The notes under the pieces: model-generated
Seen by the model: the letters and a program-made list of their open reading frames with translations, nothing else
What the model was told of the DNA's origin: nothing
Databases searched by the model: none
Position numbers and translations under genes: made by a program
Shown here: positions 21,654-62,982 of the stretch, piece after piece
Position numbering within the stretch: position 1 is the first letter of the stretch
Layout: each line of letters starts with the position of its first letter
DNA from: Candidatus Bathyarchaeota archaeon
GTDB taxonomy: Archaea > Thermoproteota > Bathyarchaeia > 40CM-2-53-6
Direction: 5' to 3'
Assembly: GCA_963833125.1 (NCBI GenBank)
Contig: CAWHWX010000001.1
Coordinates: forward strand, 32,001-96,000
Length of the DNA: 64,000 nt

Positions 21654-21885
21654 TTCGAGCCTGATGACGTTTATCAGAGCGATGGAATGCGGTTGAACAA
21701 TGTTAATTCTATCAGAGCCGATTCTGTAAAGTTATTCGCAATGAAATCGAACTGCAGCCGCTTCTTTTCTTCAAGGTGCAAGGTAACCGATCGACCTTGA
21801 CAAACTAAAGTAAGCGTGAATATTGTGTTTTGCCGTATCTAGTTGAGCCTCAAAGAAAGACGAAAAACCGTAAGTTCCCGAGTGT

Positions 21886-23208
21886 TCACTGCGGAACCAG
21901 TCGCCCTGCATTGGATTGGATAGCTTCCAAGTAGGCACCGAGTTCGTAAATGGTGACCACTTGAATGTGGGAAGAATTCTGTGAGAATAGTGGTCTTTCA
22001 GTTACAAAAAGACCAAGAACTTTCCGTTCACCAGCAATAACTCGACCTAGCAATTGCTTTTCCAGCTCAGGAAGAATATCTTCTTTGCCCAATCCATTTT
22101 CTCTCGTAACTTCTGCTCCCATTCCAGAAGTACTCCGTCTTGGGCAGAAATTGACGAAGCTCAGGAACAAAAGCAGAAGTCTTGCACTCGATAACGATGC
22201 ATAAGGGTTCAGTCTCATGTACGCCTACGCAATCGATTTGCCCGGTTGGACATTGGAATTCAGAAATCTCACTTGCAGCAAATCCAGATTTGCTCACTAT
22301 TTGCCGCACGTGAACCTCGAACGACTTCGCATGCTCTGCCCGTACTTTCTCTGTGCGTGGACCAATGGGTGACCAAAAAACTCCTCGGTTACCCTAATTG
22401 GAATCGCTCGGGCCAAAGTAAACAGCCCAACAAATGTTACACCGCTGGAAATAGTCAAGAAAGGATGACGTCCTACGCTGCCCTTGCGCCCGTAAATCTT
22501 GGTGTATTCGAAGATGCCGCTAGGCGCTATCGTCTCCTTGCTAGACCCATAGTCAGCGAACATTGCCTCCACTCTCTTTCTCTCGAGAATCGGATTTCTT
22601 AACAACTCACTGACTAGCATATTCCTGGGTTCGGACAATATTCGATACTTGGGAAAAACCGATAATGCAATCGCCTTCTCCGTGGCGAGAAGGTCGTTTA
22701 CAGAATAACCGTGCTTATTCATGAACTCCTGCTTGTCAGGCGTAACTTGACCGTCGAATGATGGCGATGCCTTCCTCTTTTCATGTTCGAGTTGTGTGAG
22801 AATTTTGGGGCTATTAATCATCTCATCCTCAGGGAAATGGATACTCCCGTCTTCGTCTATTACCAGTTCTCCTTTCACAAGCTCATAAGTGAATGCTTCC
22901 GCAGTTCTTGAATAAGCCATTACTTCACGTGCTACTTCTAACAAGCTATGGGTTTGTTGTGTGGACAAGTCCTCTACGCCTTTTCCACTGTAAACCGTGG
23001 CGACCTCGGTCAAGTAGATCGAGACTACGGTGTTACCATTCGCTGCCGCTAGCGAGCTTTCGATGGACTCGGGAGGCAAACGTGCTGCGAATGTGCTTAG
23101 ACCAAGCGGGCTTGAATAGAAAGCGGAGTAGTCGAAGTATGAGTATATGGTTGAAAGCAGTTTAGCCGTATCCAAAGGAACACATAGACCAATGAGATGT
23201 TGATGCAA
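21886..23208 (-). CDS. Large hypothetical protein with C-terminal PD-(D/E)XK (NERD/REase-like) domain; frameshifted
   Basis: ORFs 22297..23208, 22067..22309 (GQIDCVG...IVIECKT) and 21886..22218 (LGLFVT.RP) overlap consecutively. Confidence 0.6.
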
Positions 23209-47529: not shown

Positions 47530-48618
47530 TCACTTGTTCGGGTTGGCCCAGCGTAGTATGCTCTCTTGCTCCGAGTCTAGGCCTATCAGGGTCGATACTC
47601 GTACGCCGACGAGGCGGATCTTGCGGGGTGGATTCTCGAATTCTCGGAAGAGTTGTTTTACGTATTCCTCGATGATGGATTTTTCGTTTGTGTACCTCGT
47701 ATGGGTTCTTGCTCGGGTGAAGGTTTCGAAGTCTTCTAGCCTAACCTTGATGCCGATGGTTCGGAAGAGCATTCTTTGAGATTGAACTCGGGCGTGTACG
47801 TCTTGGATGAGGGAGTCAAAAGCCTGCATGACCTTTGTCTTGTCGATCACGTCTTCGTCAAAGGTGGTTTCTGAGCTGATGGATTTGATCGCTGATGATG
47901 TGATGACCTCTTCTTCGTCTATTCCATTCGCTATTTGCCAGATTCTCATCCCATATTTTCCGAAAATCTCAGTCAACCTGCTGGGATGCGTGGAAGCCAG
48001 TTGGCCGATAGTTACGATCCCTGTTTGAGTCAGTACCTCTGAGCTCTTCTTGCCGACTCCACTGATCTTTGTTACGGGCAGAGGGTCTAGGAATTCTCGG
48101 ATTTTCTGTGGCGGAACGCTGGTTAAGCCGTCTGGTTTCTTGAAGTCGGAGGCAATTTTCGCGATGGCTTTGTTCGGGGCGATGCCTATGGAGCAGGTGA
48201 GTTTTGCTTTCTCACGTATTTCCCGCTTGATCGTTTCGGCCAGTGCGGCGGCTTCTTCGAAACTGGATACTTTGTCAGTTATGTCTAGGAAGGCTTCGTC
48301 GATGCTCATTTGTTCAAGTTTCTCTGAGAAAGCTCGAAGCAGTCCGATAATCTGCTCCGAAGCCTGTTCGTATCGAGTGAAGTTGGGGTGTAGGTAGACG
48401 CCGTTTGGGCAAAGCCTGTAAGCGATGGAGATGGGCAGTGCGGAATGTACTCCAAGTTTGCGTGCCTCGTAGGAGCAGCCCATCACAACTCCTCGCCCTT
48501 TTCCTTCCCTTGGGTCCGCGCCGACAATCACGGGTTTCCCAATGAGGGTCGGGTTCTCGCGCTGCTCAACTGAGGAGTAGAATGCATCCATATCGATATG
48601 CAATATGACCCGAGGCAA
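47530..48618 (-). CDS. dinB: DNA polymerase IV (Y family)
   Basis: HIDMDAFY, SYEAR, SIDEAFLD, KIASDFKKPDG, little-finger domain. Confidence 0.95.
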   Translation of the reverse strand: MPRVILHIDMDAFYSSVEQRENPTLIGKPVIVGADPREGKGRGVVMGCSYEARKLGVHSALPISIAYRLCPNGVYLHPNFTRYEQASEQIIGLLRAFSEKLEQMSIDEAFLDITDKVSSFEEAAALAETIKREIREKAKLTCSIGIAPNKAIAKIASDFKKPDGLTSVPPQKIREFLDPLPVTKISGVGKKSSEVLTQTGIVTIGQLASTHPSRLTEIFGKYGMRIWQIANGIDEEEVITSSAIKSISSETTFDEDVIDKTKVMQAFDSLIQDVHARVQSQRMLFRTIGIKVRLEDFETFTRARTHTRYTNEKSIIEEYVKQLFREFENPPRKIRLVGVRVSTLIGLDSEQESILRWANPNK

Positions 48619-48774: not shown

Positions 48775-49704
48775 TTACCGAGCCACTGCCATTTCCTGCT
48801 CGGCCATGGCTGTGAGCTCCTTTAGTTCAGCTGCGAGACCCTTTCTGATTGCCTGGTCCAGAGGGTAATATGGTGCTCTCGGCGGACCAGCCTTGAAGCC
48901 GCCCAGTTCTGCGCATGCTTTCAACCACGCCACCTCGTTTTCAGCTGTAATGTTCCTGAATAGTTCCGTGAACTTGACATGGAACGGAACGGCTCTTTCG
49001 AGATCCCGCTTCATGCAAGCGTTGAAGAATGCTAGAGTTCCTTTTGGCGTTCCAGGACCCACTACAGACACAATGCTGTTGGCACCAACCATTGCGTCCC
49101 CCAGGAGCCAATTCTCTCCTCCTGAGAACACATTGATACGACTAGAAATGTGACTGACCACCCGTGTCCTGTGAACGACTTCTCCATTAGATTCCTTCAC
49201 AGCTTTGATCCTCTCAAGCTCCATCAGCCTGTCCCAAAATTCAGGCGTCATATTGAAACGGAAGGAGGATGGATTGTTGTAAACCATTATCTGAATCTCA
49301 TCTACGGCATCGTTCACTTGGCGATAATGCTCATAGGCGGCCTCGAAAGTGCAGGGAATCAGATACGGCGAACCTATCATAACCCCATCGCCGCCCGCAT
49401 CTTCGACATATTTCGTACGCCTTATGCACTCAGCAGTATTGTGGAATGTAGTTCCGAAAACGCATGCAATCTTCTGAGTGACATCGACTGCGGTGTCCAC
49501 AACTTTTCTGAACTCTTCGTCGCTTGGAGCATAAAATTCGCCCATGCATCCAAAAGCCAAGTAACCTTGAAACCCTGCCTCCTCATAAGCAGTAATGTTG
49601 CTCTTGAGGCCATCCAAGTCGAGATCTTGGTTATTCTTGACGACAAACGGCATCAATGGAAAAACTCCTTTCAGGGCTTTTCGTGGCATTTTCTCTTGTC
49701 TCAC
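48775..49704 (-). CDS. DapA/DHDPS-family class I aldolase, divergent
   Basis: GCMGE (for GTTGE), MVYNNP, Schiff-base VKES, GPPRAPY. Confidence 0.88.
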   Translation of the reverse strand: MRQEKMPRKALKGVFPLMPFVVKNNQDLDLDGLKSNITAYEEAGFQGYLAFGCMGEFYAPSDEEFRKVVDTAVDVTQKIACVFGTTFHNTAECIRRTKYVEDAGGDGVMIGSPYLIPCTFEAAYEHYRQVNDAVDEIQIMVYNNPSSFRFNMTPEFWDRLMELERIKAVKESNGEVVHRTRVVSHISSRINVFSGGENWLLGDAMVGANSIVSVVGPGTPKGTLAFFNACMKRDLERAVPFHVKFTELFRNITAENEVAWLKACAELGGFKAGPPRAPYYPLDQAIRKGLAAELKELTAMAEQEMAVAR

Positions 49705-49749
49705 ATGATTGGAATCTAGCTGTGTCTGTTATAGAACTTGCAGTTTATA

Positions 49750-49795
49750 GTACCGGTAAGTTGGGGTCAGAATCCCCTACACCCTCTCTGATCTT
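49750..49795 (+). repeat. Dispersed repeat copy R1 (TACCGGTA box + GGGG-TCAGAAT-CCCC)
   Basis: gtaccggtaagttggggtcagaatcccc...tctgatctt. Confidence 0.75.
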
Positions 49796-49924
49796 ATTCG
49801 GCTCTGTACTAATACTGAAAATGTATGCAAGCATTGCCAGTTCCAGTGACAATTCATCCTACTGGTGCGGGCAGACCGGTTCATCTTCTAATTAGGAATT
49901 CCTTGACGATCGCAGAACGATTGC

Positions 49925-50995
49925 TCAGGTTACTAACACGGTTGTTGCGGTCACGGTATTGTAGCCGTATCCGTACGCATTCCATACGGGTTCGACTGGT
50001 TGCCGAGCGCCGCTTCTATCATATGCCCGAGACATCAGAGCAAATCTTCCGGGTTTCTCCGGGGTCCAAGTTACTGACCAACGCCGCCATGCATAGGAAT
50101 TAGGCGCAATTTCGGATAATTCGGCGGTTTTCCATTCCGAATTGTGAGTTTTGAATTCGACCTTCGTTATTTGGCCGTAGCCCGACCATGCAACGCCCTT
50201 AACACTGCATGATCTGCCGCGCTTGAGAATCGCTTCTTCAGCAGGTTTTAGGATTAAGGATTTGACCCGAATCCGGTCCACCCCATGGTGCAGCCCTTCG
50301 GGCGGATCGTTGTAGACATATCTCTCATTCTGGAAATATCCTTGAAACGGTTCGGTTAGGACACGTACTTCAGTGAGCCACTTCACTGAAGCCATACCGT
50401 ACCATCCAGGCACGATTAGCCTCGCTGGGGCTCCGTGGATCCTCGAGATTGGTCTCTCATTCATTTTGTACGCCAATACTACGTCTTCATGGAGCGCCTC
50501 AGATAACGAGAGGCTTCTCTCAAACGATAATTCGCGACCGGCCTCTACACCCATGTCCGCACCTTTAAAGAGAAGTTCAACTGCGCTGTCTTTTGGCCCG
50601 GCTTTCTCCAATACATCCTTCAATGGCACACCGGTCCACGAGGCAGTGGCTACGGCGCAATCGCCCCAAGGGGTGCTGGGGGGAATGGGGTGCATCCGTG
50701 TCCGGCCATTACCCGCGCACTCAAGCGTAACAACCAGAGTTTTCTCACGCATTCGTGTGATTTCGCTTAGCGGCAGGGCTAGATGATTTTTTACCGCGCC
50801 GATTACACGCAATCTCCATGTCTTAGGATCGATTGTGGGCACTGAGAAATGATTCCGAACATAGAAGGAGCCGCTGGGTGTTATATTTCTACGAAGTAGA
50901 ATCTCTCGCGGAGTTTCAGCATTATAGGGTTCCGTCTCGACAAGGATCGGACGAGCCCCTGCTATTTGTCTGGAACCTTCTTTCAAGTTGCTCAT
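49925..50995 (-). CDS. Sulfite oxidase family molybdoenzyme
   Basis: NAETP, FYVRNH, LECAGN (Mo-Cys), HGAPARLIVPGWYGMASVKWL, dimerisation domain. Confidence 0.93.
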   Translation of the reverse strand: MSNLKEGSRQIAGARPILVETEPYNAETPREILLRRNITPSGSFYVRNHFSVPTIDPKTWRLRVIGAVKNHLALPLSEITRMREKTLVVTLECAGNGRTRMHPIPPSTPWGDCAVATASWTGVPLKDVLEKAGPKDSAVELLFKGADMGVEAGRELSFERSLSLSEALHEDVVLAYKMNERPISRIHGAPARLIVPGWYGMASVKWLTEVRVLTEPFQGYFQNERYVYNDPPEGLHHGVDRIRVKSLILKPAEEAILKRGRSCSVKGVAWSGYGQITKVEFKTHNSEWKTAELSEIAPNSYAWRRWSVTWTPEKPGRFALMSRAYDRSGARQPVEPVWNAYGYGYNTVTATTVLVT

Positions 50996-51068
50996 CTACG
51001 TTCTAATTTGCACGGAATACTTGAGACTCTCTTCAAGGAACGAAGAGCTTGAAATACGATTAATTCGT

Positions 51069-51218
51069 TCAGCGTTTGCGTTCTAGCGCTTTCATTCGGC
51101 GTTCTAGTTCTTCGATGCGTCTCGTGAGACCGTGGATGGCTTTGTGATGACCGTAACTGTGATCCACGAGATCGTTGAGGAGCTTCTTCAACTCTCGAGC
51201 GGTTTTTTCTTCCACCAA
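51069..51218 (-). CDS. Unlisted 49-aa His-rich coiled-coil protein
   Basis: TTG-started frame MVEEKTARELKKLLNDLVDHSYGHHKAIHGLTRRIEELERRMKALERKR; clean heptad pattern, more protein-like than the overlapping 50992..51228 ORF. Confidence 0.65.
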   Translation of the reverse strand: MVEEKTARELKKLLNDLVDHSYGHHKAIHGLTRRIEELERRMKALERKR

Positions 51219-51468
51219 ATCCCATCATCCATTAATGGTTATCATGGTTATTTATGGGTAATTTGAGTCAGGTAATTTTGTGTGAGGGTCTACTGGATGT
51301 AGTTTAGGACCGTACCCAATCCGTTGTGGCCTTAGCCGTTCTCGAGTTACAATTTCCACTAAGTAGAAATGAGGCATAATTACCCTTTACGACTGTCTCT
51401 CCCAGTTACCTTAAATACTTAGTCGGCATATATACTCATTCTAGATGAGTTCTGGAGGTGTTTTGAGG

Positions 51469-51549
51469 ATGGCTAAGAGTCGCAAAGTTAAGATGAAGTT
51501 AGGTACTGAGCACGACAAGAACGTTAAGCAAGAGGAAATGGTAGCTTAA
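51469..51549 (+). CDS. Unlisted 26-aa peptide MAKSRKVKMKLGTEHDKNVKQEEMVA
   Basis: TTAAATA box near 51411, GGAGGTG RBS 8 nt before the ATG, terminator-like hairpin downstream. Confidence 0.5.
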   Translation: MAKSRKVKMKLGTEHDKNVKQEEMVA

Positions 51550-51561
51550 GGCTACAAAAGC

Positions 51562-51594
51562 GGGTGGATGTGTCCACCCCAATTTTCTTTCTTC
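51562..51594 (+). terminator. Hairpin GGGTGGA-TGTG-TCCACCC followed by a T-rich tract
   Basis: Perfect 7-bp stem, then aattttctttcttc. Confidence 0.55.
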
Positions 51595-51759
51595 ATTATC
51601 TAAACAATCCTTCAGACATTCCGGTCACTGCCAAAGGCGAATGGTTGACTCTGACTCAGAACGCTAAGAAACCGACTGAGCATGACCCTGGAAATACATA
51701 GGAAAAAGTGATTTGAGGGTGTGAATCTGGCGTTCAAGTGTAACTTTACGGGATCATGA

Positions 51760-52308
51760 TTAGATCATTATGGCGGCTGCGATTGCTGTCGTCCAGAGTC
51801 CGTCTTTGTTGCCTTCTGCCGATTGGCAGATGTTTCTTGTGGTGACCCTCATGCCTGATATGTTCCATATCTCTTGCTTAATGTCCCAAGCATTTTCAAC
51901 ATCAAACGACACGCCATGTGTCGAGGCGAGCATTGAAGCAGCCAGATCTTCGGCGTAGTCACCAGCTTTCTCCTGCGTCTGACCATACGAAGTGTGTTCA
52001 GACAGGTAACCGTACACCGCTCTTTCGTACGGTAAAGCCATCCCTATAGCCGCAGCCATCAGCCTGTTCGGCTCATTCGTATCAATCCGGCTCATCACAC
52101 AGAATAGTATTTGACCGGGTTTCAGAAGTGGCAAGATCTCGTGCCTCGACAGTACGTTGCAATTGGGAGGTACGATGCTTGACACATAGACTAGGTTACA
52201 GAAGGCTATGCCTGCATCGCGAAGAGCCAATTCGAAACTTGCCAGTCTTTCTTTGTGGGTACCGACGCCCTTTGTGAGAAATATTTTCTCAGGGATGTTT
52301 ACGTTCAT
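51760..52308 (-). CDS. pdaD: Pyruvoyl-dependent arginine decarboxylase
   Basis: SFELALRDAGI..NLVYVSSIVPP (Ser-Ser cleavage site), YGYLSEH, YAEDLAASML. Confidence 0.93.
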   Translation of the reverse strand: MNVNIPEKIFLTKGVGTHKERLASFELALRDAGIAFCNLVYVSSIVPPNCNVLSRHEILPLLKPGQILFCVMSRIDTNEPNRLMAAAIGMALPYERAVYGYLSEHTSYGQTQEKAGDYAEDLAASMLASTHGVSFDVENAWDIKQEIWNISGMRVTTRNICQSAEGNKDGLWTTAIAAAIMI

Positions 52309-52473
52309 CTAGGATACGATCAACAACGTTTCGTGGGCATTTTTCAAGATTACCATTTTGCAGGTTCAATGATGCGTGGCCGAGAGCGGGTAATGCGAAC
52401 GGTAGAAAACCGATGCCCGAGGATGGACCCGGGACGGAATTCTGCCTGTAGGTGTTAATGCGTTGAGGGTTTT

Positions 52474-52800
52474 CTAGATGAAGTGAAGTATTAGACCCAG
52501 CAAGCCGCCTAACAGCACTAGGATACCTCCAATGCCTCCGCCGAGAAAACCAACGACGATTAGAACAATCGCCCATATGGGTTCAAGGACACGTTTGGCT
52601 AGGATAATTGCTACTATCCCCAGAATCAGGGGGACGAAAGCGAAGCCAAATGTCATTCCTAGCAGCGGGACGCTGAAGGGGAGTGAAATGGCATGTCCGA
52701 TAAGTGCCAGGAGGGTCAAGACTACGAGTATAATGCCGCCAATGAGGACGAGGTAATAGGCTGCCTTATCCAATCCGTGTTGTTTAACCAAGTTTCTCAA
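52474..52800 (-). CDS. Small Gly/Leu-rich membrane protein
   Basis: 4 hydrophobic helices; GGGIGGILVLLGGLLGL. Confidence 0.75.
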   Translation of the reverse strand: MRNLVKQHGLDKAAYYLVLIGGIILVVLTLLALIGHAISLPFSVPLLGMTFGFAFVPLILGIVAIILAKRVLEPIWAIVLIVVGFLGGGIGGILVLLGGLLGLILHFI

Positions 52801-52980
52801 TCGAGGTTGTTATACCAGCTACTAGATAGCGTTATCTATGCTTCTCTGCGGCGACGTTGCGCGACGTTGATCTGCATCTTGGGTACACACGACTAATTCT
52901 TGTCGGTTATCGGGAGGTATCTGATGCGAGACCTAGAAAATACGCAAACCAAACTCACGGCCGGATCTTAGGGCTGAGAT

Positions 52981-53014
52981 GTACCGGTAAATTGGGGTCG
53001 GAACTCCCTGACCC
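52981..53014 (+). repeat. Dispersed repeat copy R2
   Basis: gtaccggtaaattggggtcggaactccctgaccc. Confidence 0.75.
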
Positions 53015-53062
53015 ATCTTGGAAGTCAGGTAGCCGATGATTTTTGTGAAGACGAAAAAAGGG

Positions 53063-53389
53063 CTAGGGCCAGAACCGTCTAGAATTTAGCAGGACTGGCC
53101 AGAGAGAGTTGGGTAGCATGTTACCGTAGCGATCAAACGCATATGATGCTGAAGGCATCTGTTTTTTTCTTAATTGGTATAGAACCGAGACAGGCATCGC
53201 GTCATTTACTTGCGGGTGCAGTTCAGTCGCATCTTGAATACGAAAGAGTTCAATGAACGGTGCTTGTTGTTCAGCGAACGTTCCAGCCTCTCTTCTTGTC
53301 GGGAAACGAGCTATGTTGAATGGCTGCTTTATGTCGATCATATTGCTTCGTAGGATATTTGGGTGATTCTGACCTAAAACCGTTGGCAT
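53063..53389 (-). CDS. Hypothetical protein between repeats R2 and R3
   Basis: 108-aa ATG-started ORF; no motif recognised. Confidence 0.55.
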   Translation of the reverse strand: MPTVLGQNHPNILRSNMIDIKQPFNIARFPTRREAGTFAEQQAPFIELFRIQDATELHPQVNDAMPVSVLYQLRKKQMPSASYAFDRYGNMLPNSLWPVLLNSRRFWP

Positions 53390-53471
53390 TCATCTTTATG
53401 CCATGATGCGACTATGGAACCCATTGTTCAGGCGTTGTTCAGGTATCCCTTGCTATTGTTACTCGGATGAC

Positions 53472-53498
53472 CGGGGTGAGAATCCCCGTCTCTGATTT
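53472..53498 (+). repeat. Dispersed repeat copy R3 (hairpin only)
   Basis: cggggtgagaatccccgtctctgattt: 5-bp stem, 7-nt loop, shares the tctctga tail with R1 and R4. Confidence 0.6.
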
Positions 53499-53783
53499 CG
53501 GGCTCAGTGCGAAAGGAGCTATTACTCGGAGTAGAAACTTGATTTTCTTACCCTGATGTTACAGAATGGGCACGTTGGCTGATATTCAGTGAAATTACTC
53601 TTGCATTTAGGACAATACCAAGCCATAGGAAGCACCCTTTCACTAATCTCTGAAGAACATACCTGAGTACTAGCCCTGCAAAGTGCCTACTACCGCAGAA
53701 ATGTCCGCTAGAACATCAGTAATACTCACATTGATGGGCAAAAAGTCCACTGAGAGTCAGAAAGCACGGTGCGCAGCGTATAC

Positions 53784-53895
53784 GTACCCGTAAATTGGGT
53801 GGTCAGAACCCCCATCGCCGGAAGGAGATTTGCTACGAGTAAGAGGGAGGCGCGCACCCAAACAGGTTCAAGCCCCTCCGTCTCTGACCCTGATC
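53784..53895 (+). repeat. Dispersed repeat copy R4 (extended)
   Basis: gtacccgtaaattgggtggtcagaaccccc ... cccctccgtctctgaccc; ggtcaga/tctgacc can pair. Confidence 0.7.
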
Positions 53896-53903
53896 GAGTT
53901 AAG

Positions 53904-54440
53904 TTAAGTGCGTGTCTTTGGAGAAATGACAAGAGCATCCGTCGTATCCGATGTCAATTTTCGTGAACGTAGCGCACCTTGAATTTTCAATTTTGCAGCA
54001 TCACAGTACGCACTCCAAACAAATGGGTTTGGGTCGTAGACTCTAAGAAATTCCCTATCATAACCAAGCACACTCAGCATATGCCAGTTTTTCGGCGGAA
54101 TCGGTACCGAAATTATGGCGGGTCTATTTTCGTCTACACATTCTTCAAGAAAGCTAACTAACGCATTGAATGACCCATGAAATTGATACTCTTCACAATA
54201 TCGGATATCGGCCCACGAAAACTCGGAGTATTGCTTCAATACATCTTGGATTGGTTTGAGTCCTATCTGATCCAGCCCTTTCCTTCTCACGAATTCGCGT
54301 AGTATTTGCCCCTGCGTTACTGTTGAGTTCGGCATGTGATATTTTGCGACTGCCTCAATACTCGCAGGGATACACCAATCATGGTTTGGCGGTTGTCTTA
54401 CTTCAAACGGAAAGCGTTCGAAGTATCGAATCAGTTGCAA
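53904..54440 (-). CDS. C39-like (papain-fold) cysteine peptidase
   Basis: Q-x5-WC (QPPNHDWCIPAS), PAIISV, WHMLSVLGYD, VYDP catalytic pattern. Confidence 0.8.
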   Translation of the reverse strand: MQLIRYFERFPFEVRQPPNHDWCIPASIEAVAKYHMPNSTVTQGQILREFVRRKGLDQIGLKPIQDVLKQYSEFSWADIRYCEEYQFHGSFNALVSFLEECVDENRPAIISVPIPPKNWHMLSVLGYDREFLRVYDPNPFVWSAYCDAAKLKIQGALRSRKLTSDTTDALVISPKTRT

Positions 54441-54751
54441 GTCTTCTTACTCCTATACCCTGTGTTATACCGTTCGGCGTTTGAATCAATGTACGCGACT
54501 TATTTTCTCTGGCCGCACGGATTCCTATGTCAGTCGGTGTCCTTTCATTTAACCCAACGGTCCACTAACTGGACTTGAGCTGAATTCCAAACTGGGATAC
54601 AAGAGCTTCCGTTGTGACCTGATTAACTAGCGAAAGTGACCTCGCCTCCGGCAGGCTGCGATTTATGCGTTCAAGCGCCCGAATCTCATGCCTTAGATTT
54701 TCGAAGTCTTATTATGACAATATCCCGATTTCACTGAAGAGGGCGAAAGAA

Positions 54752-55168
54752 GTGAGTGATTTCAACGATTGGAACAGAAAGATCATCGATGAGTTTCGAG
54801 CGAATGAGGGGAAGGTCGGCGGGATGTTTGAAGGCAAAACGTTGCTTCTTTTACACGCTAAAGGGGCTAAGAGCCAGCAGGAACGTATCAATCCACTAGC
54901 GTATGTGCGAGATGGGGAAAGGTTCGTGGTGATTGCGTCTAAAGGAGGCGCACCGACAAACCCGGATTGGTACTACAACGTTGTTGCAACCCCCGAACTC
55001 ACGGTTGAAGTTGAAACGGAAAGATTTCGGGTTCATGCCACCGTAGCTGAAGAACCGGAACGGACGCGGTTATACAATAAGATGGTTGAGATGATGCCTG
55101 CCTTTGATGATTATCGACATAAGACTACGCGCAAAATTCCAGTCGTTGTGCTGACACCTATGAAGTAA
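54752..55168 (+). CDS. Deazaflavin (F420)-dependent nitroreductase family (Ddn/FDOR-A)
   Basis: WNRKIIDEFRANEG, LLLLH..GAKS...R.NPL, ASKGGAPTNPDWYYN, RKIPVVVL. Confidence 0.93.
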   Translation: MSDFNDWNRKIIDEFRANEGKVGGMFEGKTLLLLHAKGAKSQQERINPLAYVRDGERFVVIASKGGAPTNPDWYYNVVATPELTVEVETERFRVHATVAEEPERTRLYNKMVEMMPAFDDYRHKTTRKIPVVVLTPMK

Positions 55169-55307
55169 GAGTGAAATTGCTAAAAATATCTCGTCACAGC
55201 ACACTTTGCAGCGATTTTCACGCTCTTCTCGCATGACACTCACAGCCATCACAGCCATAGCCCTTAACGTCCGCAGAACCAAGAGTACTTGTCCAAGGCG
55301 ATAGCGG

Positions 55308-56180
55308 ATGGTTACTTTAGCTGTGATTGTACCATGTCGGAACGACTGCGACGCAGCGGAGAAGTTGGTTTCAAGTTTCAGTGAACAAACCATTCAACCA
55401 GACAAAGTTGTCGTAGGTCACGATAAGTGTCTTGGCCAGAGTGGATGCGTCCAGTTTGGAAACAAAGCTGCAACAATCAACTTCTACGCCAAGCAGCTCG
55501 ACACCGACTACATTGTAGTCTTGGATGCCGACATGGAGTTAACGCCAACATTCTTTGAGGCATTCAAGATCGCCTTCGAACGAACAATGCCGACCGTAGG
55601 CAGCGGCGTTGTCTACGCACTATCAGAGAATACGGCGGCGAGGAAGAACCGACTTATTGGATTCGGTAGTGGGGCAATGCGCTGGTACTGGTTCGGGGGA
55701 TGCATGTACATGCAAAGAAGCTTCCTCGTAGCCAACCCTATGCCTACGGAAACTGTACTTGAGGACGTTGTTTACGGTAAACTACTCGAGCAGAGGGGAA
55801 TCAACGCCGAATTCGTTCCCAACGCTGTCTGTTTCATGTGGAGGAAAAACGAGACCTTAATCCGACAACTACGAAGACAAATTCGGTTCATGCTGGGATC
55901 ACTCGAACAAACACGTTTCCATCTGAGTCGACACACGCCTGTCCTTTACGCCGCCCTTTCCACCGGCTATGTTCTTACCCTGCTGGGGGCTTTCAGGCTT
56001 AACCTGGTTTTTGGATTCAGCCTCTTTCTCGGCTACACTCTCCTAGTCGCAGCATGCTATTACTCCGGTTCTCAGTATGAAGAGAACGGTCTCGCCGTCA
56101 CTCTCACATACAGCCTATTGTGGCTTCCAATCTGCTGCTACACGTTTGCACTGTTTATCGCAAGGAAAAAGATATGGTAG
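55308..56180 (+). CDS. GT2 family glycosyltransferase with C-terminal TM helices
   Basis: VIVPCRN, GNKA, LDADM, LEDV, QLRRQIRF. Confidence 0.82.
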   Translation: MVTLAVIVPCRNDCDAAEKLVSSFSEQTIQPDKVVVGHDKCLGQSGCVQFGNKAATINFYAKQLDTDYIVVLDADMELTPTFFEAFKIAFERTMPTVGSGVVYALSENTAARKNRLIGFGSGAMRWYWFGGCMYMQRSFLVANPMPTETVLEDVVYGKLLEQRGINAEFVPNAVCFMWRKNETLIRQLRRQIRFMLGSLEQTRFHLSRHTPVLYAALSTGYVLTLLGAFRLNLVFGFSLFLGYTLLVAACYYSGSQYEENGLAVTLTYSLLWLPICCYTFALFIARKKIW

Positions 56181-56238
56181 GCGCCGCCCCTATCAAGAGT
56201 CCCTCGGAGTCTCACTATACCTGATACTCGCTGAAGGC

Positions 56239-56279
56239 TTACTAGTAAACTGGGGCTGAAATCCCCTCCCCCGCACATT
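56239..56279 (+). repeat. Dispersed repeat copy R5
   Basis: ttactagtaaactggggctgaaatcccctcccccgcacatt. Confidence 0.8.
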
Positions 56280-56335
56280 GTACTGGCCTCAAAGAGTAGA
56301 AAGGCCCATCTCGATCTGTTAGGTCACGACTAATC

Positions 56336-56620
56336 ATGAGCTTGTTGAGTGGCATCGAACTCCTGTCGGTGCTTGTGGTAGTTGGTGTGCTGTTTCTTTT
56401 GGGCGTACGATTGAGAACGAGATCGAGTACCGCCATTCTATTGCTGATCATTACGTTTCTATTTCTGGCGTTGATCTCCTTAGGCAAATTGACTATGGCT
56501 TTGTTTACCGCGGCACTCTTTCTTGGGACGATACTAATCCTGTTTGTCTGGATCTCACTCCGCCACTCATCTCTTAGCATTCTACAGGTTTCGACGGAAG
56601 TCAGCCGGACCCGCACCTAA
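56336..56620 (+). CDS. Small 3-TM membrane protein flanked by R5 and R6
   Basis: 94 aa; three hydrophobic helices. Confidence 0.65.
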   Translation: MSLLSGIELLSVLVVVGVLFLLGVRLRTRSSTAILLLIITFLFLALISLGKLTMALFTAALFLGTILILFVWISLRHSSLSILQVSTEVSRTRT

Positions 56621-56668
56621 ATAGGTACAAGTCCCTCCGGACCCGCCACACTTACGGTTCGCTTATGG

Positions 56669-56709
56669 TTACTAGTAATTTGGACCTGAAATCCACTCCC
56701 CCACACATT
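56669..56709 (+). repeat. Dispersed repeat copy R6 (direct repeat of R5, 35/41 identical)
   Basis: ttactagtaatttggacctgaaatccactcccccacacatt. Confidence 0.8.
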
Positions 56710-56887
56710 CCATAGAACCACGTGTACTCCCAAACGAAATCTCCGCCCGACTCTTGGAACGTGCGTTATGAACGCGGGGGAAAGAATAACCTGTCCAAGA
56801 AGGTTCCTGAGAGAAGACTCGAAGTGACCGGTCAGTTGGATTGCATATTCAAATTGCGCTCTTACTGCCATTGGAATATATTCTAAA

Positions 56888-56905
56888 TAAATTGGGTCAA
56901 CAGAA
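56888..56905 (+). repeat. Degenerate repeat copy R7
   Basis: taaattgggtcaacagaa versus R4 taaattgggtggtcagaa (15/18 identical). Confidence 0.45.
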
Positions 56906-56934
56906 TTAGTGAAGATATACCGGGAGTATTGAAA

Positions 56935-57573
56935 CTATTCCTGAAGTTTGCGTTCTGATATTCGTCTGGCTGATGATACGATTAGTGGAATGAACCAGAA
57001 GTAGAATCGTATGGGTTGGTCGAAGAGTTTGATATTCCAGAATACTGGCAGCACGGTGATGGCGAATAGGGCTGCGGAGATGAATAGAATGTTCCTAACC
57101 CTCGTATATTTCGCGAGTGATTCCTTCGGAACCAACCCTTTCTCTTCCGAGGCTAATTGATGTGTGAATAATGCGAGGAGCAGCATCAGTCCGGCCATGT
57201 CTAGGGCGTACAGGATTGAGGCGTAGTAGAGGAATATTTCGTGGGTTAGGAGGTCGAAGGTTATGTTGAGGTAGAAGAGGTAGGGTTCAATGGAGACGAG
57301 AAAGAGTAGCACGAGGTTGAGGGTGACTATGGTGCTATCCTCCAGAGGGAGAACCGACATTATGTTCGTATAACTTAGCCATACAGAGATCAAAATCAGG
57401 AACCCAAAACCGAACTCTAGAATGTCGATAAGGATCCCGAACGGCTTCGGAGGGAGCCGAGTGATCAAGGGAATGGTACTGATCGCTAGGGCCAGTCCGA
57501 ATATGATGTCCGAGAGCGACTCGATCCGGGACTTGGCAATTCGCGGCCCAGCCTGTTTCATTGTTTCGTCCAA
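56935..57573 (-). CDS. TMEM175 (DUF1211) family potassium-channel-like protein
   Basis: RIESLSDIIFGLALAI (RxxxFSD-like), W, LNLVLLFLVSIEPY; 6 TM segments. Confidence 0.82.
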   Translation of the reverse strand: MDETMKQAGPRIAKSRIESLSDIIFGLALAISTIPLITRLPPKPFGILIDILEFGFGFLILISVWLSYTNIMSVLPLEDSTIVTLNLVLLFLVSIEPYLFYLNITFDLLTHEIFLYYASILYALDMAGLMLLLALFTHQLASEEKGLVPKESLAKYTRVRNILFISAALFAITVLPVFWNIKLFDQPIRFYFWFIPLIVSSARRISERKLQE

Positions 57574-59018: not shown

Positions 59019-62000
59019 TCTTGTCGATGCCTAGGGGCAGATCAAGGCTTCCGCTCATAGTCTCAATATGCTTTGCTGCAGTAGCTGCGATTGGTGCGTT
59101 TGGAACTATAGCTTGGGTGACCGGTCAGTTTACCCTTGCACAAATTAACCCGTTGTTTGTTCCAATTGCCCCATTGACCATTCTGCTCCTAGTATTGCTG
59201 GGGACATCGTGGTTTCTGTACGGTATGAGGCCTAAATATTCCTGGTCTAGAATACAGGCTGGGGCGGTAGGTGTTCTCGTTGTCATACTGACATCCTTAA
59301 CCATTTATCACGCCGTGTTCCCGGGAAGTTTTAGTTTAGAAGCACTGCTATTTCCTAATCCCGGCACCGTTCAGGTATATCCGATAGCCAGGATATCACC
59401 CGTCACCAGCGTTATCTTCCTCCTTGGAGGCCTCTCCCTAGTCTTACTCGTCTCGTCTTCAGGTTCGCCGATCGAGAACCAGTGCCGCTTTGGTTGGGAT
59501 TGTTATCCTTTTCTCTGGTGTCGTGACGAGTCTCGGCTATCTGTATCAGGCACCGCTGCTTTATGGTAGCCCTACGATACCAGTTTCGATCCTAGCCGGG
59601 ATTGCTTTCCTGTTCTTGGGAACGGAAATTTGGGCGGCGGCTGGGCGAGATTGTTGGCCTACGCGGACTTTAACGGGTGATTCTGTCAAGGCTAGGCTAC
59701 TGCGTGCGTTTCTCCCAGCCTCAGCACTGACGTTGGTGATTTCTCTCGTCCTTGATGATGCGCTTGGGGGTATCTACGCTGCACCATTCGTAGCGTCGAT
59801 GACGCTGTTGGGATGGCTTGTGGTAGTGATCATTGGCATAGGGAGATTGAGCAGTAGGATTGGAGCTGGGATCGACCAAGGCATAGCCGAACGCGCACGT
59901 TTGGATAAGGCGCTGCAGGAGAGCGAAGATAAGTATCATGCGATGGTTGATAATTCTCCCAACATGATCGGCATTTTCCAGGATGGCATGCTGAAGTATG
60001 TCAACGCTACTGCAATCCAAGAGTTGGGTTGGAAGTACGAAGAGCTCGTATCGTCTTCTTTTGACCCAATGGAAAACATTGTGTCGCCGCAATCTAGGAG
60101 TCTGTTAAAGGAAAATGTTGGCAGGAGACTGCGTGGCGAAGACATCTCTCCTTACGAGATAAGCCTGACTAGGAAAGACGGTTCACAAATCCTAGTCAGT
60201 GTTAAAGGAACGATGCTTACCTACGAAGGAAAGCCTGCGATTCAGTTCTCATTTCGAGATATGACGAAGCGCGAACATGCTTATGAAACCAAGTCCTCTC
60301 TGGCTGCAATTGTTGAATCCTCGGATGATGCCATCATCGGCAAAACATTGGACGGAGTGATCACGAGCTGGAACAAGGGTGCCGAGAATTTATACGGCTA
60401 TTCTGCCGAAGAAACAAAGGGTAAGTCCGTCTCCATTCTCATCCCGCCTAGTCTTACCGATGAGCTGCCGAAGATATTCGAGAGAATCAAGAGAGGAGAG
60501 AGGATTGAACATTTCGAGACCGAACGCATGAAGAAAGATGGCACTGTCATACAAGTCTCTTTGGCAGTTTCCCCGATTCGAGATTCCACCGGTAGAATAG
60601 TTGGGGCCTCAACGATGGCCCGGGACATCACCGGTCGTAAACGGTTAGAGGAGGAATTGAAACAGCATTCGCTGCACTTGGAGGAATTGGTGGCTGAGAG
60701 GACGAAGGAGCTGGGTTCAGCTCGAGAACGACTGGAGTATGCAGTTGAATCGAATCCTGCGGTCCTCTGCATTGGAAAGCCTCTCCCCGATCAGTCGGAC
60801 TTCAATACAACATACCTTAGCAAGAACATCAAAGCCCTAACGGGATTTGAAGCTGACGAGTTGATTGGATTCAAAGGGGCGGAATTTTGGAAGACGAGAA
60901 TCCCACCCAATCACTATCAAAAATTCTTGGCTGAAATTCCACTCCTTTGGCGCAACGGACAGCATACCTTCGAGTATCAGTTCCTGCATAAGGACGGCGC
61001 CTATCGCTGGATACGTGAGGAGGAGAGAGTGATTCGTAATGCAAAGGGCGAGGTGCAGGATGTGATCGGTTACTGGACCGACGTAACGGAGAACAAGATG
61101 ATCGAGGAGCAGTATCGTGAGTTGTTCGAAGCCTCTCCAGTTTCCCTCTGGGAGGACGATTTCTCCGAAGTGAAACAGTTCCTAGACGAATTACGAAAAA
61201 GTGGGGTGTCAGATTTTGATGCTTACTTCGCCAACCATCCAAAAGATTTTGCTAAATGCGCTTCACTAATGCGAGTCGTCAACGTGAACAAAGCCACCTT
61301 AGACCTCACCGGCGCGAAGTCGAAGGATGAGATTATCGGAGGCGAACGGAAACACCGTAATCTTCTTAGACGGAGCGGGGCGGGAATTTGTGGGGGATAT
61401 CGTTGCGTTGGCTCAAGGCAAGACGCAGTATGAAGCAGAAATCGACAATCAGAACTGTGCACGGTGAGACGAAATACTGCAACTTGACATGCGCAGTGGC
61501 TCCTGGGTACGAGCAATCTCTCGCCAAGGTTCTGTACTGCTTAGTCGACTTAACTGCCCAGAAGAAAGCTGAGGAAGAGGTTCGAGCAGCGCGAGAACGC
61601 CTTGATTTCATATTACGCTCCAGCCCAGCTATCACTTTCACAGGTAAGCCTAATGCTGATCTAACTGATTTCACGATAACCTACATGAGTAGCAACGTTA
61701 AGCAGATTCTAGGTTACGATCCGGATAGATTACTTGGCCGATCCGAACTTTTGGGTGAATCATCTTCACCCCGAGGATTCCGATCTTACTCTATCACAAT
61801 TACGCCGCGTCTTCACAGATGGACACGTCAGCGTGGAGTACCGCTATTCATCGTAAGGACGGTACATATCAGTGGATGCGAGATACCGTCGATCTCATCA
61901 AAAATCCCGATGGCAAACCGATCGAGGTGGTGGGAACTTCCATCGAAATTAATGAACAAAAACGGATGGAGGAGGAAAACAGGAAGTTGAACGCTGAAGT

Positions 62001-62982
62001 GGCACTGCGTCTGACCGAAGTCACGGACCAGGTTGAATCATTATCCAGGTCAAGAGAGAGGTTGAAGACAGTTCCTGATGTAACTTCTGGGCTTGACATA
62101 ATTCTAGATTCAATTCTTTGGGATTTCGGTTTGGACTTTGGGGCTGTGCTCGTAATTGATCGGCATGAGAATCGAGCGAATGTTCGAGCGTCTAAGGGCA
62201 GAGAGCAGGCGCTTCGACTTGATGACAGTTATCCGCTTGGAAGCTTTGTGGAACTGGAAGACTTGCAGACAAAGAGCGTGAGTAAGTTAGCTGTGGAAGG
62301 TGAGAGAAGTATCTTTGGCAAAGCCGCAGTGCGGACAATAATCCCAATCCTTTCTGGAGCAGAGGTATATGGGCTGTTGGCGTTTGGCAGCGTGAAACAA
62401 CAAACGCTTGAACCAAGCAGCATGCGCATGCTGGAACTGTACGCCGAATTAGTCTACTCATTCATTATGGAAAAGTCCGTCGCCGTTGTTCCCGCACTAG
62501 AAACGAAAAGGGTTGGACGTGGATCGGGTGATCTTGAGACTGGTCAGATATACATAGTCAAGAAACATCCAGAAAAGGCATTCGAAATTTTCGCGAGCAA
62601 CGTGTTCAGTAACCATGAAGGCTTGTGTATAACGAGAAGGTATCCACCCAAGGTGCGGAGCGAGTATGGACTTGAGAAGACACCGATCGTTTGGTTGACG
62701 AGCGAAGCATCCGAGAGCGAGAAGACTGTTCAATCTATTCAGGACATATCAATCATAATCGCGAACTTCATGGAGAAAGCTACGAGCCCTGTAATATTGC
62801 TTGATGGGCTCGAATACCTCGTAACCAACAGTGGATTCGACTCTCTCATCAGGTTTCTACAGGTTCTCAATGACCGTCTTCAAAGAAAAAGCGGAGTGCT
62901 ATTCGCGCCCATCCTAGAGGAGGCTTTTGGAACCAAGGACCTTGCCCTACTGCACCGGGAAACAGTGAACTTAGCCGAGTAA
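59015..62982 (+). CDS. Membrane-anchored multi-PAS + GAF-like + DUF835 sensor protein; three frameshifts
   Basis: TM region, PAS repeats (AAIVESSDDAIIG...SWNKGAE; HKDGAYRWI), GAF-like segment, DUF835 GLCITR..P...VWLT...VILLDGLEYL. Confidence 0.85.

Follow-up and report, generated by a model that had tools for sequence, protein, structure and literature searches.

We studied a short repeat in a 64,000-nt stretch of the Candidatus Bathyarchaeota archaeon assembly GCA_963833125.1 (contig CAWHWX010000001.1, positions 32,001 to 96,000), called the window in the following. Between positions 49740 and 56706, i.e., inside 7 kb, the window holds five clear copies (R1, R2, R4, R5, R6) of one unit of about 50 bases, all on the + strand and all intergenic. 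A scan for TACYRGTAANNTGG with at most one mismatch yields five matches in the whole window, again all on the + strand (49751, 52982, 53785, 56240, 56670), where 0.39 are expected by chance and 0/100 shuffles reach five. The motif is thus above background frequency. An earlier note on this DNA, made from its letters, had counted up to seven copies, all on the + strand. The five named above stand, which does not hold for R3 (a fragment) and R7 (unsupported): neither is detected by a profile of 102 copies (see below), even at E ≤ 10 with filters off.

The unit reads G(C/T)TTATAT-GTACCGGTAAATT-GGGG[YYRR]AATCCCCT and continues with either of two tails. Tail A (CCCCCGCACCA) is identical to the 3' end of intron-rich tRNA genes (probably Leu) in the window's genome, while tail B (GCCCCATCTCTGA) is non-tRNA. 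R1 (49740..49791; profile E 1.3e-12) carries the TATA-like GCAGTTTATA, the box TACCGGTA at 49751-49758, the hairpin at 49763-49777 and the tail ACACCCTCTCTGA. R2 (52972..53022; E 1.9e-11) has the same box TACCGGTA at 52982-52989, the hairpin GGGGTCGGAACTCCC, a B-like tail and a degenerate TATA-like part. The fragment R3 (53471..53495, +) consists of a hairpin (GGGGTGAGAATCCCC) and a GTCTCTGA tail only, i.e., it has neither box nor AAATT. R4 (unit at 53775-53822 within 53671..53822; E 6.1e-7) shows the box TACCCGTA at 53785-92, a stem with a 2-nt insertion and a degenerate tail. R5 (56230..56276; E 7.4e-8) combines the box TACTAGTA at 56240-47 with the hairpin GGGGCTGAAATCCCC and the tRNA-type tail TCCCCCGCAC. 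In R6 (56661..56706; E 2.5e-5), the box TACTAGTA at 56670-77 is followed by a shifted stem (TGGA/TCCA) and the tail CTCCCCCACAC. Within the window, only R5 and R6 keep the tRNA-type tail; R1 and R2 have tail B. R7 (56884..56909, +), which we do not count as a copy, shows a weak resemblance (AAATTGGGTCAACAGAAT), and its stretch is kept at 83-89% as flank of the neighboring TMEM175 gene in two relatives (G016 and G019).

Two further short modules adjoin the units. About 100 nt directly before R4 (53671-53774) are 93% identical to G000:C1:152880-153020 (G000 denotes the window's genome, C its contigs), are multi-copy in several genomes, and are also found in G013, G017, G012, G002 and G015. We note that this conserved stretch before R4-type units (53671-53774; G000:C1:152907-153020) could encode a 30-aa open reading frame (ORF) with its stop in the TAA of the box. 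Module Y (56605..56649, +) lies directly before R6 and is a second kind of tRNA-3'-end relic (GGACCCGCACC ... GGTACAAGTCCCTCCGGACCCGCCAC). Its sequence is similar to the end of another tRNA, and it is found again where modules join in G019:C32, G019:C52, G016 and G000:C18.

The genes around and between the units were assigned via Pfam. The conserved left flank is formed by a DHDPS-family gene (48775..49704, -) with a DinB-type polymerase gene to its left (47530-48618), the conserved right flank by the TMEM175-family gene (56935..57573, -). The block between R1 and R2 (49925..52800, -) runs from a molybdopterin oxidoreductase of the sulfite-oxidase type (49925-50995), followed by a 78-aa ORF, via a pyruvoyl arginine decarboxylase (PvlArgDC, 51760-52308) to a 108-aa membrane protein (52474-52800). 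The block between R4 and R6 (53853..56620, mixed strands) holds a C39-like peptidase (53904-54440, -), an F420H2-dependent quinone reductase (54665-55168, +), a GT2 glycosyltransferase (55308-56180, +) with R5 after it, and a 94-aa membrane protein (56336-56620, +). The labels that the earlier note had given to the oxidoreductase, the peptidase, GT2 and TMEM175 agree with the Pfam assignments. No Rfam family reaches its gathering score in the window.

Some neighboring features are listed for completeness. The R1-R2 block includes a multi-copy element of about 240 bp (51354-51600), in which an AT-rich stretch resembling a promoter, a 26-aa ORF (MAKSRKVKMKLGTEHDKNVKQEEMVA) and a GC hairpin with a T run behind it are found. 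At least 7 further copies are present in G000 (C12, C14, C19, C18 and three on C1), and many in G015, G016 and G019 at 73-89% identity. Immediately beyond the right end of the island (59490-62982), a sensor pair is encoded, i.e., a PAS-rich 647-aa protein and then a GAF-DUF835 protein.

The repeat unit, its distribution and its orientation

We gathered and aligned 102 distinct copies genus-wide and built the profile from this alignment. The consensus is nGCTTATATGTACCGGTAAATTGGGGTCAGAATCCCCTnCCCC..., with the columns TAC..GTAAATTGGGG....AATCCCC conserved at 90% or more; in total, 20 columns are nearly invariant (90% or more) and 1 is invariant. Variable are the box centre and the first four loop bases. 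The latter (columns 29-32) vary almost only by transitions, keeping YYRR (TCAG, TCAA, CTGA, TTGA, CCAA, CCAG, CTAG). Likewise, R1 and R5 differ at 8/27 positions, all by transitions, as the earlier note had stated. Based on by-eye counts, the tail has the form (C/T)CCCCGCACCA in about 30 copies and (G/A)CCCCATCTCTGA(A/G) in about 45.

The box had also been proposed to co-vary such that it stays palindromic. This holds weakly: the central pair is CG in 70 of the 102 copies and doubly changed to TA in 7, which keeps the palindrome, and the palindrome is lost in 25 (TG in 11, others in 14). The excess of double changes is weak (8 cells vs. 3.7 +/- 1.6; 7/500 shuffles are as high). Within the hairpin stem, none of the 4 pairs shows a compensatory change among the 102 copies. 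As single-stranded DNA, three window units and one consensus-like unit fold no better than their shuffles (z from +0.97 to -1.64). The box-core-box junction L140, in contrast, folds strongly (z -4.5) because of its inverted arms. Window copies are followed by no T run after the hairpin on either strand.

Upstream of the unit, several copies show GTGGGTTCAAATCCCACCGGCCCCA at a distance of about 9 nt. 'Full-length' units are preceded by GTGTGTGGGTCTAGTGGTGCGGGCAAGCAAATTTGAACC, which is the reverse complement of a tRNA-like end plus a conserved trailer. Some units overlap ORFs of 75-76 aa, and the R4 box could end the 30-aa ORF mentioned above. A small-ORF reading was nevertheless rejected, since an ORF of at least 90 aa overlaps only 12/102 copies and the conservation shows no codon pattern (by eye).

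Next, we identified where the unit occurs. Applying a threshold of E ≤ 2.5e-5 for strong copies, the whole G000 assembly (3.07 Mb in 39 contigs, 88% complete) holds 14, of which 5 are found in the 7 kb of the window. The others are located on C14 (5 copies, one at 12 kb and four at 41-51 kb), C1 (2, at 153-155 kb), C9 (1) and C11 (1). An exact scan with a degenerate 27-mer (one genome per species) retrieved 40 stretches. By title, 36 are Bathyarchaeia/Bathyarchaeota, 2 belong to 'archaeon RBG_16_50_20', and one each to a 'Promethearchaeati' and an 'Aminicenantes' bin, which may be mis-binned. Allowing up to 3 mismatches, the 27-mer is found in 15/22 other genomes of the genus and in 0/18 genomes of other genera from the same family and order; the reversed 27-mer has no match in any of the genomes scanned. 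That is, the repeat is confined to one Candidatus Bathyarchaeia genus. A viral source was dropped as well, given 0 matches of the degenerate 27-mer in viral contigs. Literature searches on integrons, cassettes and mobile elements of Bathyarchaeia retrieved no paper on the repeat, as judged by titles and the opening lines of abstracts.

The orientation of the copies follows their neighbors and is independent of the genes nearby. All 55 distinct pairs of neighboring copies up to 10 kb apart are co-oriented (33 at ≤2 kb, 17 at 2-5 kb, 5 at 5-10 kb). Opposed neighbors are found only twice, namely at 28.7 and 64.2 kb; one opposed pair in G014 (6.3 kb apart) sits in separate loci and is outside the 55-pair count. 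With respect to genes within 400 nt of the 102 copies, upstream genes are co-oriented in 45 and divergent in 40 cases, downstream genes co-oriented in 39 and convergent in 39, with distances spread over 0-400 nt. In the window, 4/5 copies are directed towards the 3' end of a gene on the other strand. Polar neighbors combined with random gene orientation exclude, in our view, promoter, terminator and leader readings, and are unlike miniature inverted-repeat transposable elements (MITEs) or repetitive extragenic palindromic (REP) sequences. Single units have no inverted termini, and the either-way insertion typical for MITEs is not seen among the 55 pairs. For the earlier note, this means that its argument against terminators is confirmed, that a position of about 10-130 nt past a stop codon is no rule, that the random orientation it had considered as a possible refutation is not found among neighbors, and that its REP/MITE-like alternative is contradicted.

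The sign of the local GC skew agrees with the unit strand for 11-12 of the 14 G000 copies. On G011:C5, where all 14 copies are on the - strand, the skew is positive in 5/8 10-kb bins, i.e., of opposite sign. A link to the replication strand was therefore dropped.

tRNA genes and framed elements

The weakest profile matches are real tRNA 3' ends (GGGGTTCGAATCCCCTCCCCCGCACCA). Hence, judged by its sequence, the right half of the unit is a relic of a tRNA T-arm plus acceptor; what the earlier note had called a 'T-arm-like hairpin' is so literally. The tRNA genes with this 3' end are long and intron-rich. We take them to be probably tRNA-Leu genes, assuming that their 5' sequence (GCGGGG..CC.AGCCAGGTCAAAGG) and long extra arm reflect the consensus of this tRNA. 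ARAGORN labels for these intron-rich loci disagree with Leu and are unreliable. The loop differs systematically between the two classes, namely TTCGAAT in the tRNAs vs. YYRRAAT in the units.

tRNA genes of 190-230 nt with at least one long insertion are located at G000:C9:6773-6961, C14:12575-12760 and G011:C5:220090-220320. Most of them are missed or mislabelled by ARAGORN and the Rfam tRNA model. For G000, ARAGORN reports 35 tRNA genes, many with dubious intron calls of up to 1870 nt.

The units are linked to these tRNA genes also by position. The copy at C9:3888 shares 21 consecutive bases (GAATCCCCTCCCCCGCACCAT) with the tRNA at C9:6773-6799, which is located 2.9 kb upstream on the same strand. 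Within G000, 2/4 tRNA genes with this end have a co-oriented copy at most 3 kb downstream (C9 at 2.9 kb, C14 at about 0.2 kb), where the chance of a co-oriented unit within 3 kb of a given site is about 0.007 by simple arithmetic (14 units in 3.07 Mb). A tRNA upstream of co-oriented copies is likewise present in G011:C5, G013:C4, G013:C1, G014 and at L065; since these loci were retrieved around copies, they illustrate the pattern and are no test of it. G016 shows the same order. For instance, the G011:C5 tRNA at 220.1 kb (-) is followed by 14/14 units on the - strand, from 215.9 down to 160.0 kb, and the G013:C4 tRNA at 118,982 (+) by 7 units between 129.8 and 141.8 kb, all on the + strand. 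Direct contacts are found, too: the succession of tRNA end, TTT and box occurs at 11 sites in 9/22 other genomes of the genus (reversed control: 0), and at L127 the tRNA is directly followed by box, AAATT, hairpin and a B-like tail.

Repeated partial tRNA 3' ends downstream of a tRNA gene are a classical mark of integrative elements and their tandem accretion. The repeat is therefore not 'unrecognised' in kind, as had been claimed; it is probably an unusual small-module, arm-conserved variant, in Bathyarchaeia, of known tRNA-tail attachment junctions. A split or permuted tRNA reading, in which the units are 3' pieces of split tRNA genes, was rejected based on 9-20 copies per genome, degenerate and mostly non-tRNA tails, the non-canonical T-loop and the lack of matching 5' pieces among the sequences seen.

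At two tRNA genes, elements framed by the same kind of ends are found, of which one bears an integrase and the other only cargo. In G011 (- strand), the order is tRNA, TTTTACCGGTACACATAATAGCC, a 182-aa ORF, a 319-aa tyrosine recombinase (G011:C5:218585-219544; PF00589 with E 2e-27, SAM-like N-terminal domains), four ORFs without Pfam match at E ≤ 0.01, GCTTATATGTACGGGTAAATT and the hairpin of the first unit. This 4.2 kb segment has inverted ends of about 22 nt that equal the left half of the unit, and sits between the tRNA and the first of the 14 units. In G016, the frame extends from the tRNA plus TTTTACCGGTAC to ...TTATCCGTACCAGTAAATT plus GGGGTCAGAATCCCCTTCCCCGCACCA, i.e., a closing unit with full CCCCGCACCA tail. 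It holds 2.2 kb with only two GT2 glycosyltransferase genes and has inverted repeats of about 40 nt at its ends. In both elements, the inverted ends are flanked by direct tRNA-like repeats. The corresponding segment of G000:C9 encodes a methyltransferase and a GT4 gene. Furthermore, two metagenome stretches show the order box-core-box; neither has an integrase beside it, and one has a truncated Cas1 about 4 kb away.

No integrase was found in the window, at 4 other G000 loci and in the arrays of G013, G019 and G004. An IntI/attI head is likewise not seen, as neither the region of the window nor that part of contig C1 yields a PF00589 match. The earlier note's idea that the enzyme is encoded elsewhere holds insofar as nothing acting as such is encoded next to the window array. 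As a side observation, G000:C16:1-13000 harbors six PF00589 matches (L100-L105, L109), all on the + strand with open frames of 369-724 aa.

The motif preceding 'full-length' units belongs to a larger dispersed family. Its core, GTGGGTCTARTGGTGCG, is the reverse complement of a tRNA end (CGCACCA) plus the trailer YTAGACCCAC. G000 holds 36 copies on both strands (e.g., C1:99682, C6:3370, C18:126006, C29:4446), and 21/22 relatives of the genus have 1-50 copies each. Some copies flank real tRNA genes, some occur in inverted pairs, and many are followed by the T-loop-like AATTTGAAC.

Module exchange among relatives and in metagenomes

To relate the window array to other genomes, 11.1 kb around it were used as query. 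The query is a mosaic in the relatives. Its flanks show identities of 82.9% (G016) and 89% (G019) for DinB, 90.7% (G016) for DHDPS with R1, and 83.8% (G016) and 87.3% (G019) for TMEM175. The GT2 module, on the other hand, is 97.4% identical in G016 and 97.1% in G019, both in other contexts. The C39-like peptidase is found at 96.7% in G019:C3 and as a second copy in G000:C18 at 96.1%. For PvlArgDC, 94.2% are observed in G019, where the gene is located about 390 nt after a unit; the 108-aa membrane protein reaches 88%. Pieces of the R1-R2 block match different G019 contigs. The same is seen outside the window: a GNAT gene between the two C1:153-155 kb units is 94.4% identical in G019, where it also lies between two units.

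In G016, the flanks are syntenic (DinB, DHDPS and the R1 ortholog on one side, the R7 stretch and TMEM175 on the other), and the R1 ortholog adjoins the DHDPS gene with homology stopping at 49796. The 7 kb between the R1 ortholog and TMEM175 are entirely different and hold only one partial unit, i.e., gene order between copies is not conserved. Ends of homology blocks (≥250 bp, ≥80% identity, relatives vs. G000) are within 60 nt of a unit in 10/76 cases compared to 2.2 expected for random positions in the same loci (the maximum of 1000 randomisations is 10, equal to the observed value). The high identity of the GT2 module to G019 ends at the R5 box and is followed by 8 differences in about 45 nt (manual count). 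R2 together with about 55 nt before it matches G019:C32 9922-10013 at 85%. In six more distant genomes, DinB and DHDPS are not neighbors and no unit is found beside DHDPS, such that the island is untraceable beyond G016 and G019.

The divergence between the orthologous R1 copies of G000 and G016 is similar to that of the DNA around them. In different species and at unrelated loci, in turn, copies retain the consensus. Both together fit repeated fresh input from a mobile source. Most copies lie between unrelated flanks, even directly beside the unit.

Similar rearrangements are present in metagenomes. Contigs covering parts of the stretch are present in each of four DNA runs of soil or peat, which belong to four studies. 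In contig X7, a single unit connects 53798 with 56706 (70 letters on the shorter side, depth 3.7). Thereby, the module upstream of R4 is placed beside the sequence downstream of R6, without the 2.9 kb encoding C39, quinone reductase, GT2 and the 94-aa protein. Insertion of a block at, or its deletion between, two direct units would give such a present/absent form. X7 also joins the decarboxylase module to module Y (52366->56605). Further joints are 56273->56606 in X2 (94-aa gene skipped) and 56196->56607 in X1 (R5 and 94-aa gene skipped). Joints at the edges of module Y fall at 56605-56607 and 56649-56650. Arrangements like that of G019 are found in three metagenome runs. Given the module identities, the 7 kb swap in G016 and the metagenome joints, the copies do mark borders of gene modules that are shuffled among relatives. 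The earlier note's restriction to single accessory genes is too narrow, as modules of relatives include argG and argH.

Interpretation and alternatives

At slightly better than an even chance, we lean towards the units being attachment (att) junctions of tRNA-targeting integrative elements and of cargo-only derivatives, accreted in tandem. The elements would insert at the 3' ends of certain tRNA genes (probably tRNA-Leu). In each unit, the right half (GGGG....AATCCCCT plus CCCCCGCACCA) would represent the duplicated T-arm/acceptor core of the tRNA, and the incoming DNA would have supplied its conserved end as the left half (the TATA-like GCTTATAT and the near-palindromic box GTACCGGTAAATT). 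Elements, far more often in the form of recombinase-less cargo-only derivatives, would insert serially at a core-bearing site, such that each insertion adds one unit of the same direction and displaces older modules outward. Tandem accretion would thereby result in the polarity of the arrays. Afterwards, recombination between units as well as decay would reshuffle, delete and scatter modules of one or few genes. The window array would be an accreted, partly decayed stack, which lost, or never had, its tRNA and recombinase and whose position, with DHDPS on one side and TMEM175 on the other, is conserved. Any present-day movement would consequently need an enzyme in trans. The junctions would presumably be made by a tyrosine recombinase, with strand exchange possibly within the 8-bp box or AATCCCC(T), and the system may still be active.

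This reading is based on what was observed for the tRNA origin of the core, the strict co-orientation of neighbors, the ties to tRNA genes, the two framed elements and the mosaic of modules; the pattern also agrees with that of tycheposon islands and of archaeal tRNA-targeting elements (see below). Several observations weigh against it. The window array sits far from any tRNA, with no tRNA gene in the 64 kb (ARAGORN, Rfam, regular expression) and no recombinase gene alongside the array (PF00589); the distance to tRNA genes is unexplained. Tail B, found on about 45/102 copies, is no tRNA sequence, and if it were the other arm of the element, a tRNA with broken acceptor stem would be predicted, of which none was seen. 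Were complete elements integrated in tandem, each core should be followed by an inverted left arm. Such arms are seen only at tRNA genes and at the two metagenome junctions and are missing inside arrays, where a strict and narrow regular expression for box-hairpin-box gave 0 matches in those searched; this is unexplained, too. The same applies to the YYRR-only loop variation and the transitions-only difference between R1 and R5. Concerning the enzyme, none of the 12 PF00589 matches in G000 lies in a contig region with a copy or has a box or core within 4 kb. The G011 integrase has no homolog above 27% identity in G000, G013, G004, G019 and G016, so that no conserved partner enzyme is identified. 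Modules in arrays of relatives include the housekeeping genes argG, argH, TFB and eIF-1A (56 kb span), which is odd for pure cargo of mobile genetic elements (MGEs). Synteny within the genus is low in general, and G016 has a unit-free 3-gene insertion between DinB and DHDPS. The excess of homology block ends near units refers to a uniform null, though homology tends to break in intergenic DNA. Finally, loose metagenome contig ends cluster at 49791, 52979, 56240 and 56271-56276, which is expected for any dispersed repeat.

Known systems share parts of this picture. In Methanosarcina mazei, tRNA-Leu 3' ends serve as a common target of casposons and of tyrosine-integrase elements from two groups, and solo ends remain there (Krupovic et al. 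2016, PMC4779613). The units agree with archaeal tRNA-targeting MGEs with tyrosine recombinases in several respects: at loci outside the window, partial copies of the tRNA 3' end follow the tRNA gene in its own direction, several unrelated elements are stacked at one tRNA, solo ends remain, the tRNA 3' end finishes in CGCA(CCA), and one element here has a tyrosine recombinase beside the tRNA. In contrast to those MGEs, most units here frame modules of 0.3-5 kb with one to few ordinary genes and without recombinase, replication or virion genes. They form arrays of 4-14 units, some without nearby tRNA (including that of the window), show a non-tRNA arm of about 21 nt that is conserved in >100 copies amid unrelated DNA, and commonly have the second, non-tRNA tail GCCCCATCTCTGA. 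For the tycheposons of Prochlorococcus, serial tRNA integration is described to leave partial tRNAs scattered in islands (Hackl et al., bioRxiv 10.1101/2020.12.28.424599). Tycheposon islands likewise occupy conserved places, push older elements inward upon serial integration, contain degenerate remnants and scattered extra partial tRNAs, and include cargo-carrying forms. Tycheposons are, in contrast, bacterial and defined by their own tyrosine recombinase families, where no conserved recombinase is identified here; the Bathyarchaeia repeat further differs by its conserved non-tRNA arm with palindromic box and by much smaller modules.

Likenesses to further systems can be drawn from general knowledge. 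Accretion of cis-mobilizable elements is known in bacteria. For archaeal chromosomes, She et al. are said to have described in 2001 'gene capture' by decay of integrated plasmids and viruses. As in these cases, genes of mobile origin would stay here between att repeats after integrase loss, and accretion would be tandem and site-specific. In those precedents, the elements are few and large and their integrase genes decayed or partitioned; here, each genome holds dozens of tiny modules with a uniform short junction. Ghaly et al. reportedly described in 2022 integrons in archaeal metagenome-assembled genomes (MAGs). With integrons, the arrays share co-oriented short repeats resembling recombination sites between mostly single genes, a content that varies among relatives, and an enzyme that need not adjoin every array. 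They are unlike integrons in that no IntI-type integrase is present at the array, the repeat has a tRNA origin and a link to tRNA genes, and the cassette genes point either way (39 co-oriented, 39 convergent) and must therefore carry their own promoters. By eye, no attC architecture with R''/L'' and L'/R' box pairs is seen, in line with the earlier note, which had remarked that paired attC boxes are lacking, and with single units folding no better than shuffles. Spacing in the window is irregular (3231, 803, 2455 and 430 nt), i.e., there is no periodicity of clustered regularly interspaced short palindromic repeats (CRISPR), as the note had remarked. Nor do the units resemble REP/BIME-RAYT or IS200/IS605 elements: the hairpin has 4 bp and no fold signal, and G000 (88% complete) has 0 PF01797 matches, with control genomes positive, i.e., the HUH/Y1 transposase that the note had suggested to look for was not found in this incomplete assembly. 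A fixed orientation and distance to genes, as for promoters or terminators, is not seen in the 102 copies.

As an unlikely alternative to tandemly accreted att junctions, a transposon-like element targeting tRNA 3' ends may have given rise to the units, which would be its solo ends or short derivatives that are non-autonomous. It could be a casposon (Cas1-solo) or another element with terminal inverted repeats (TIRs). The left half would then be the terminal repeat and the tRNA-like part target sequence that was carried along or duplicated. Cas1-solo genes (about 400 aa, PF01867) are indeed found in 12/22 further genomes of this genus, the maximum being 11 matches (G017), and these multi-copy genes likely belong to casposons. 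On G013:C8, cas1 (20750-21964) and, about 175 nt later, a unit lie in a 2.8 kb segment between inverted repeats of 27 nt (89% complementary). These inverted repeats contain the trailer motif, and GTGTGTGGGTCTAGTGGTGCG, found before 'full-length' units and dispersed with 36 copies in G000, forms these repeats as well; no PolB is encoded inside the repeats and no clean 14-bp direct duplication was identified. A Cas1 or Cas1 fragment is located 4-5 kb from a unit in G004:C45 and on metagenome contig L139. The G011 and G016 elements with inverted ends between direct tRNA-like repeats would fit as well, as would the CGCA-CCA end of the tRNA-type tail: casposases of M. mazei require CGCA together with the last 30 bp of tRNA-Leu, and solo-TIRs beside CGCA are known. 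Opposed to this, Cas1 has 0 matches in G000 (88% complete), in G011 (99% complete, with most units), G019 and G016, while G017 with its 11 Cas1 matches has 1 unit, i.e., Cas1 counts do not track unit counts. Only 2/31 listed Cas1 matches are within 5 kb of a listed unit, where about 1.2 are expected from unit density, and a casposon link by distance was dropped as not above chance. A casposase or other transposase is thus kept only as a rival. Furthermore, single units show by eye neither an inverted repeat partner nor an evident target duplication, the loop difference between tRNAs and units is unlike a product of fill-in duplication, the window has no match to GTGGGTCTARTGGTGCG even at up to 3 mismatches, and the 55/55 co-oriented pairs are unexpected for independent transposition unless the target is polar.

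Still less probable appears a spread of neutral relics, in which a few ancient integrations were distributed by segmental duplication and homologous recombination under fluid gene order. Synteny in the genus decays quickly even without units, the orthologous R1 copies drift like neutral sequence, neither covariation nor a fold signal is seen, and no enzyme was found in cis in G000. Such relics are hard to reconcile with the nearly invariant columns kept by 102 copies in many species, with the strict local polarity, and with the ties of units to tRNA genes and framed elements; the unrelated flanks up to the unit edges argue that the copies were not made by segmental duplication. We consider it highly improbable that the unit is an expression signal, be it an archaeal promoter with palindromic operator (possibly for a tRNA-fragment-like RNA) or a terminator or processing site. 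In archaeal promoters, the TATA element has a defined spacing to the start. GCTTATAT is present in at least 70% of the copies about 25 nt before the hairpin, i.e., at TATA position for a start near GGGG, and the near-palindromic box is of the type bound by dimeric regulators. Yet gene orientation within 400 nt is random, most copies in the window point at the 3' end of a gene on the other strand, and the TATA-like part is missing in R2 and R5. Also, no Rfam family, no fold beyond shuffles, no compensatory change and no T run after the hairpin on either strand is found.

Returning to junctions of tRNA-targeting elements, a more far-reaching version can be formulated, which we regard as possible and hold tentatively. 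Here, Bathyarchaeia would have a functional integron-like gene-capture system that is independent of integrons, with a site of about 50 bp composed of a palindromic box arm and a tRNA(Leu-like) T-arm/acceptor core, a recombinase that acts in trans to insert, excise and exchange self-expressed modules of 1-3 genes between species, and strictly polar arrays at tRNA genes and at secondary chromosomal sites like that of the window. As a description of the pattern, a cassette array that is not an integron and has its enzyme elsewhere, as first proposed for the window, is fair.

Peat, soil and sediment harbor abundant Bathyarchaeia, which are uncultured archaea and whose ways of exchanging genes are almost unknown. 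If the units are live sites, they would explain how single genes for metabolism, the cell surface and membranes (glycosyltransferases, peptidase, decarboxylase, oxidoreductases) move between species at 94-97% identity, and would allow the flexible genome of MAGs to be located by a simple sequence tag. They would also be a second, independent answer to the 'cassette array' problem, which is solved in bacteria by integrons. The units probably add to MAG fragmentation in the genus, given that several contigs of relatives end at or near units. Even as relics, they indicate that tRNA-tail junctions can travel far from tRNA genes, marking the seams of genome mosaics.

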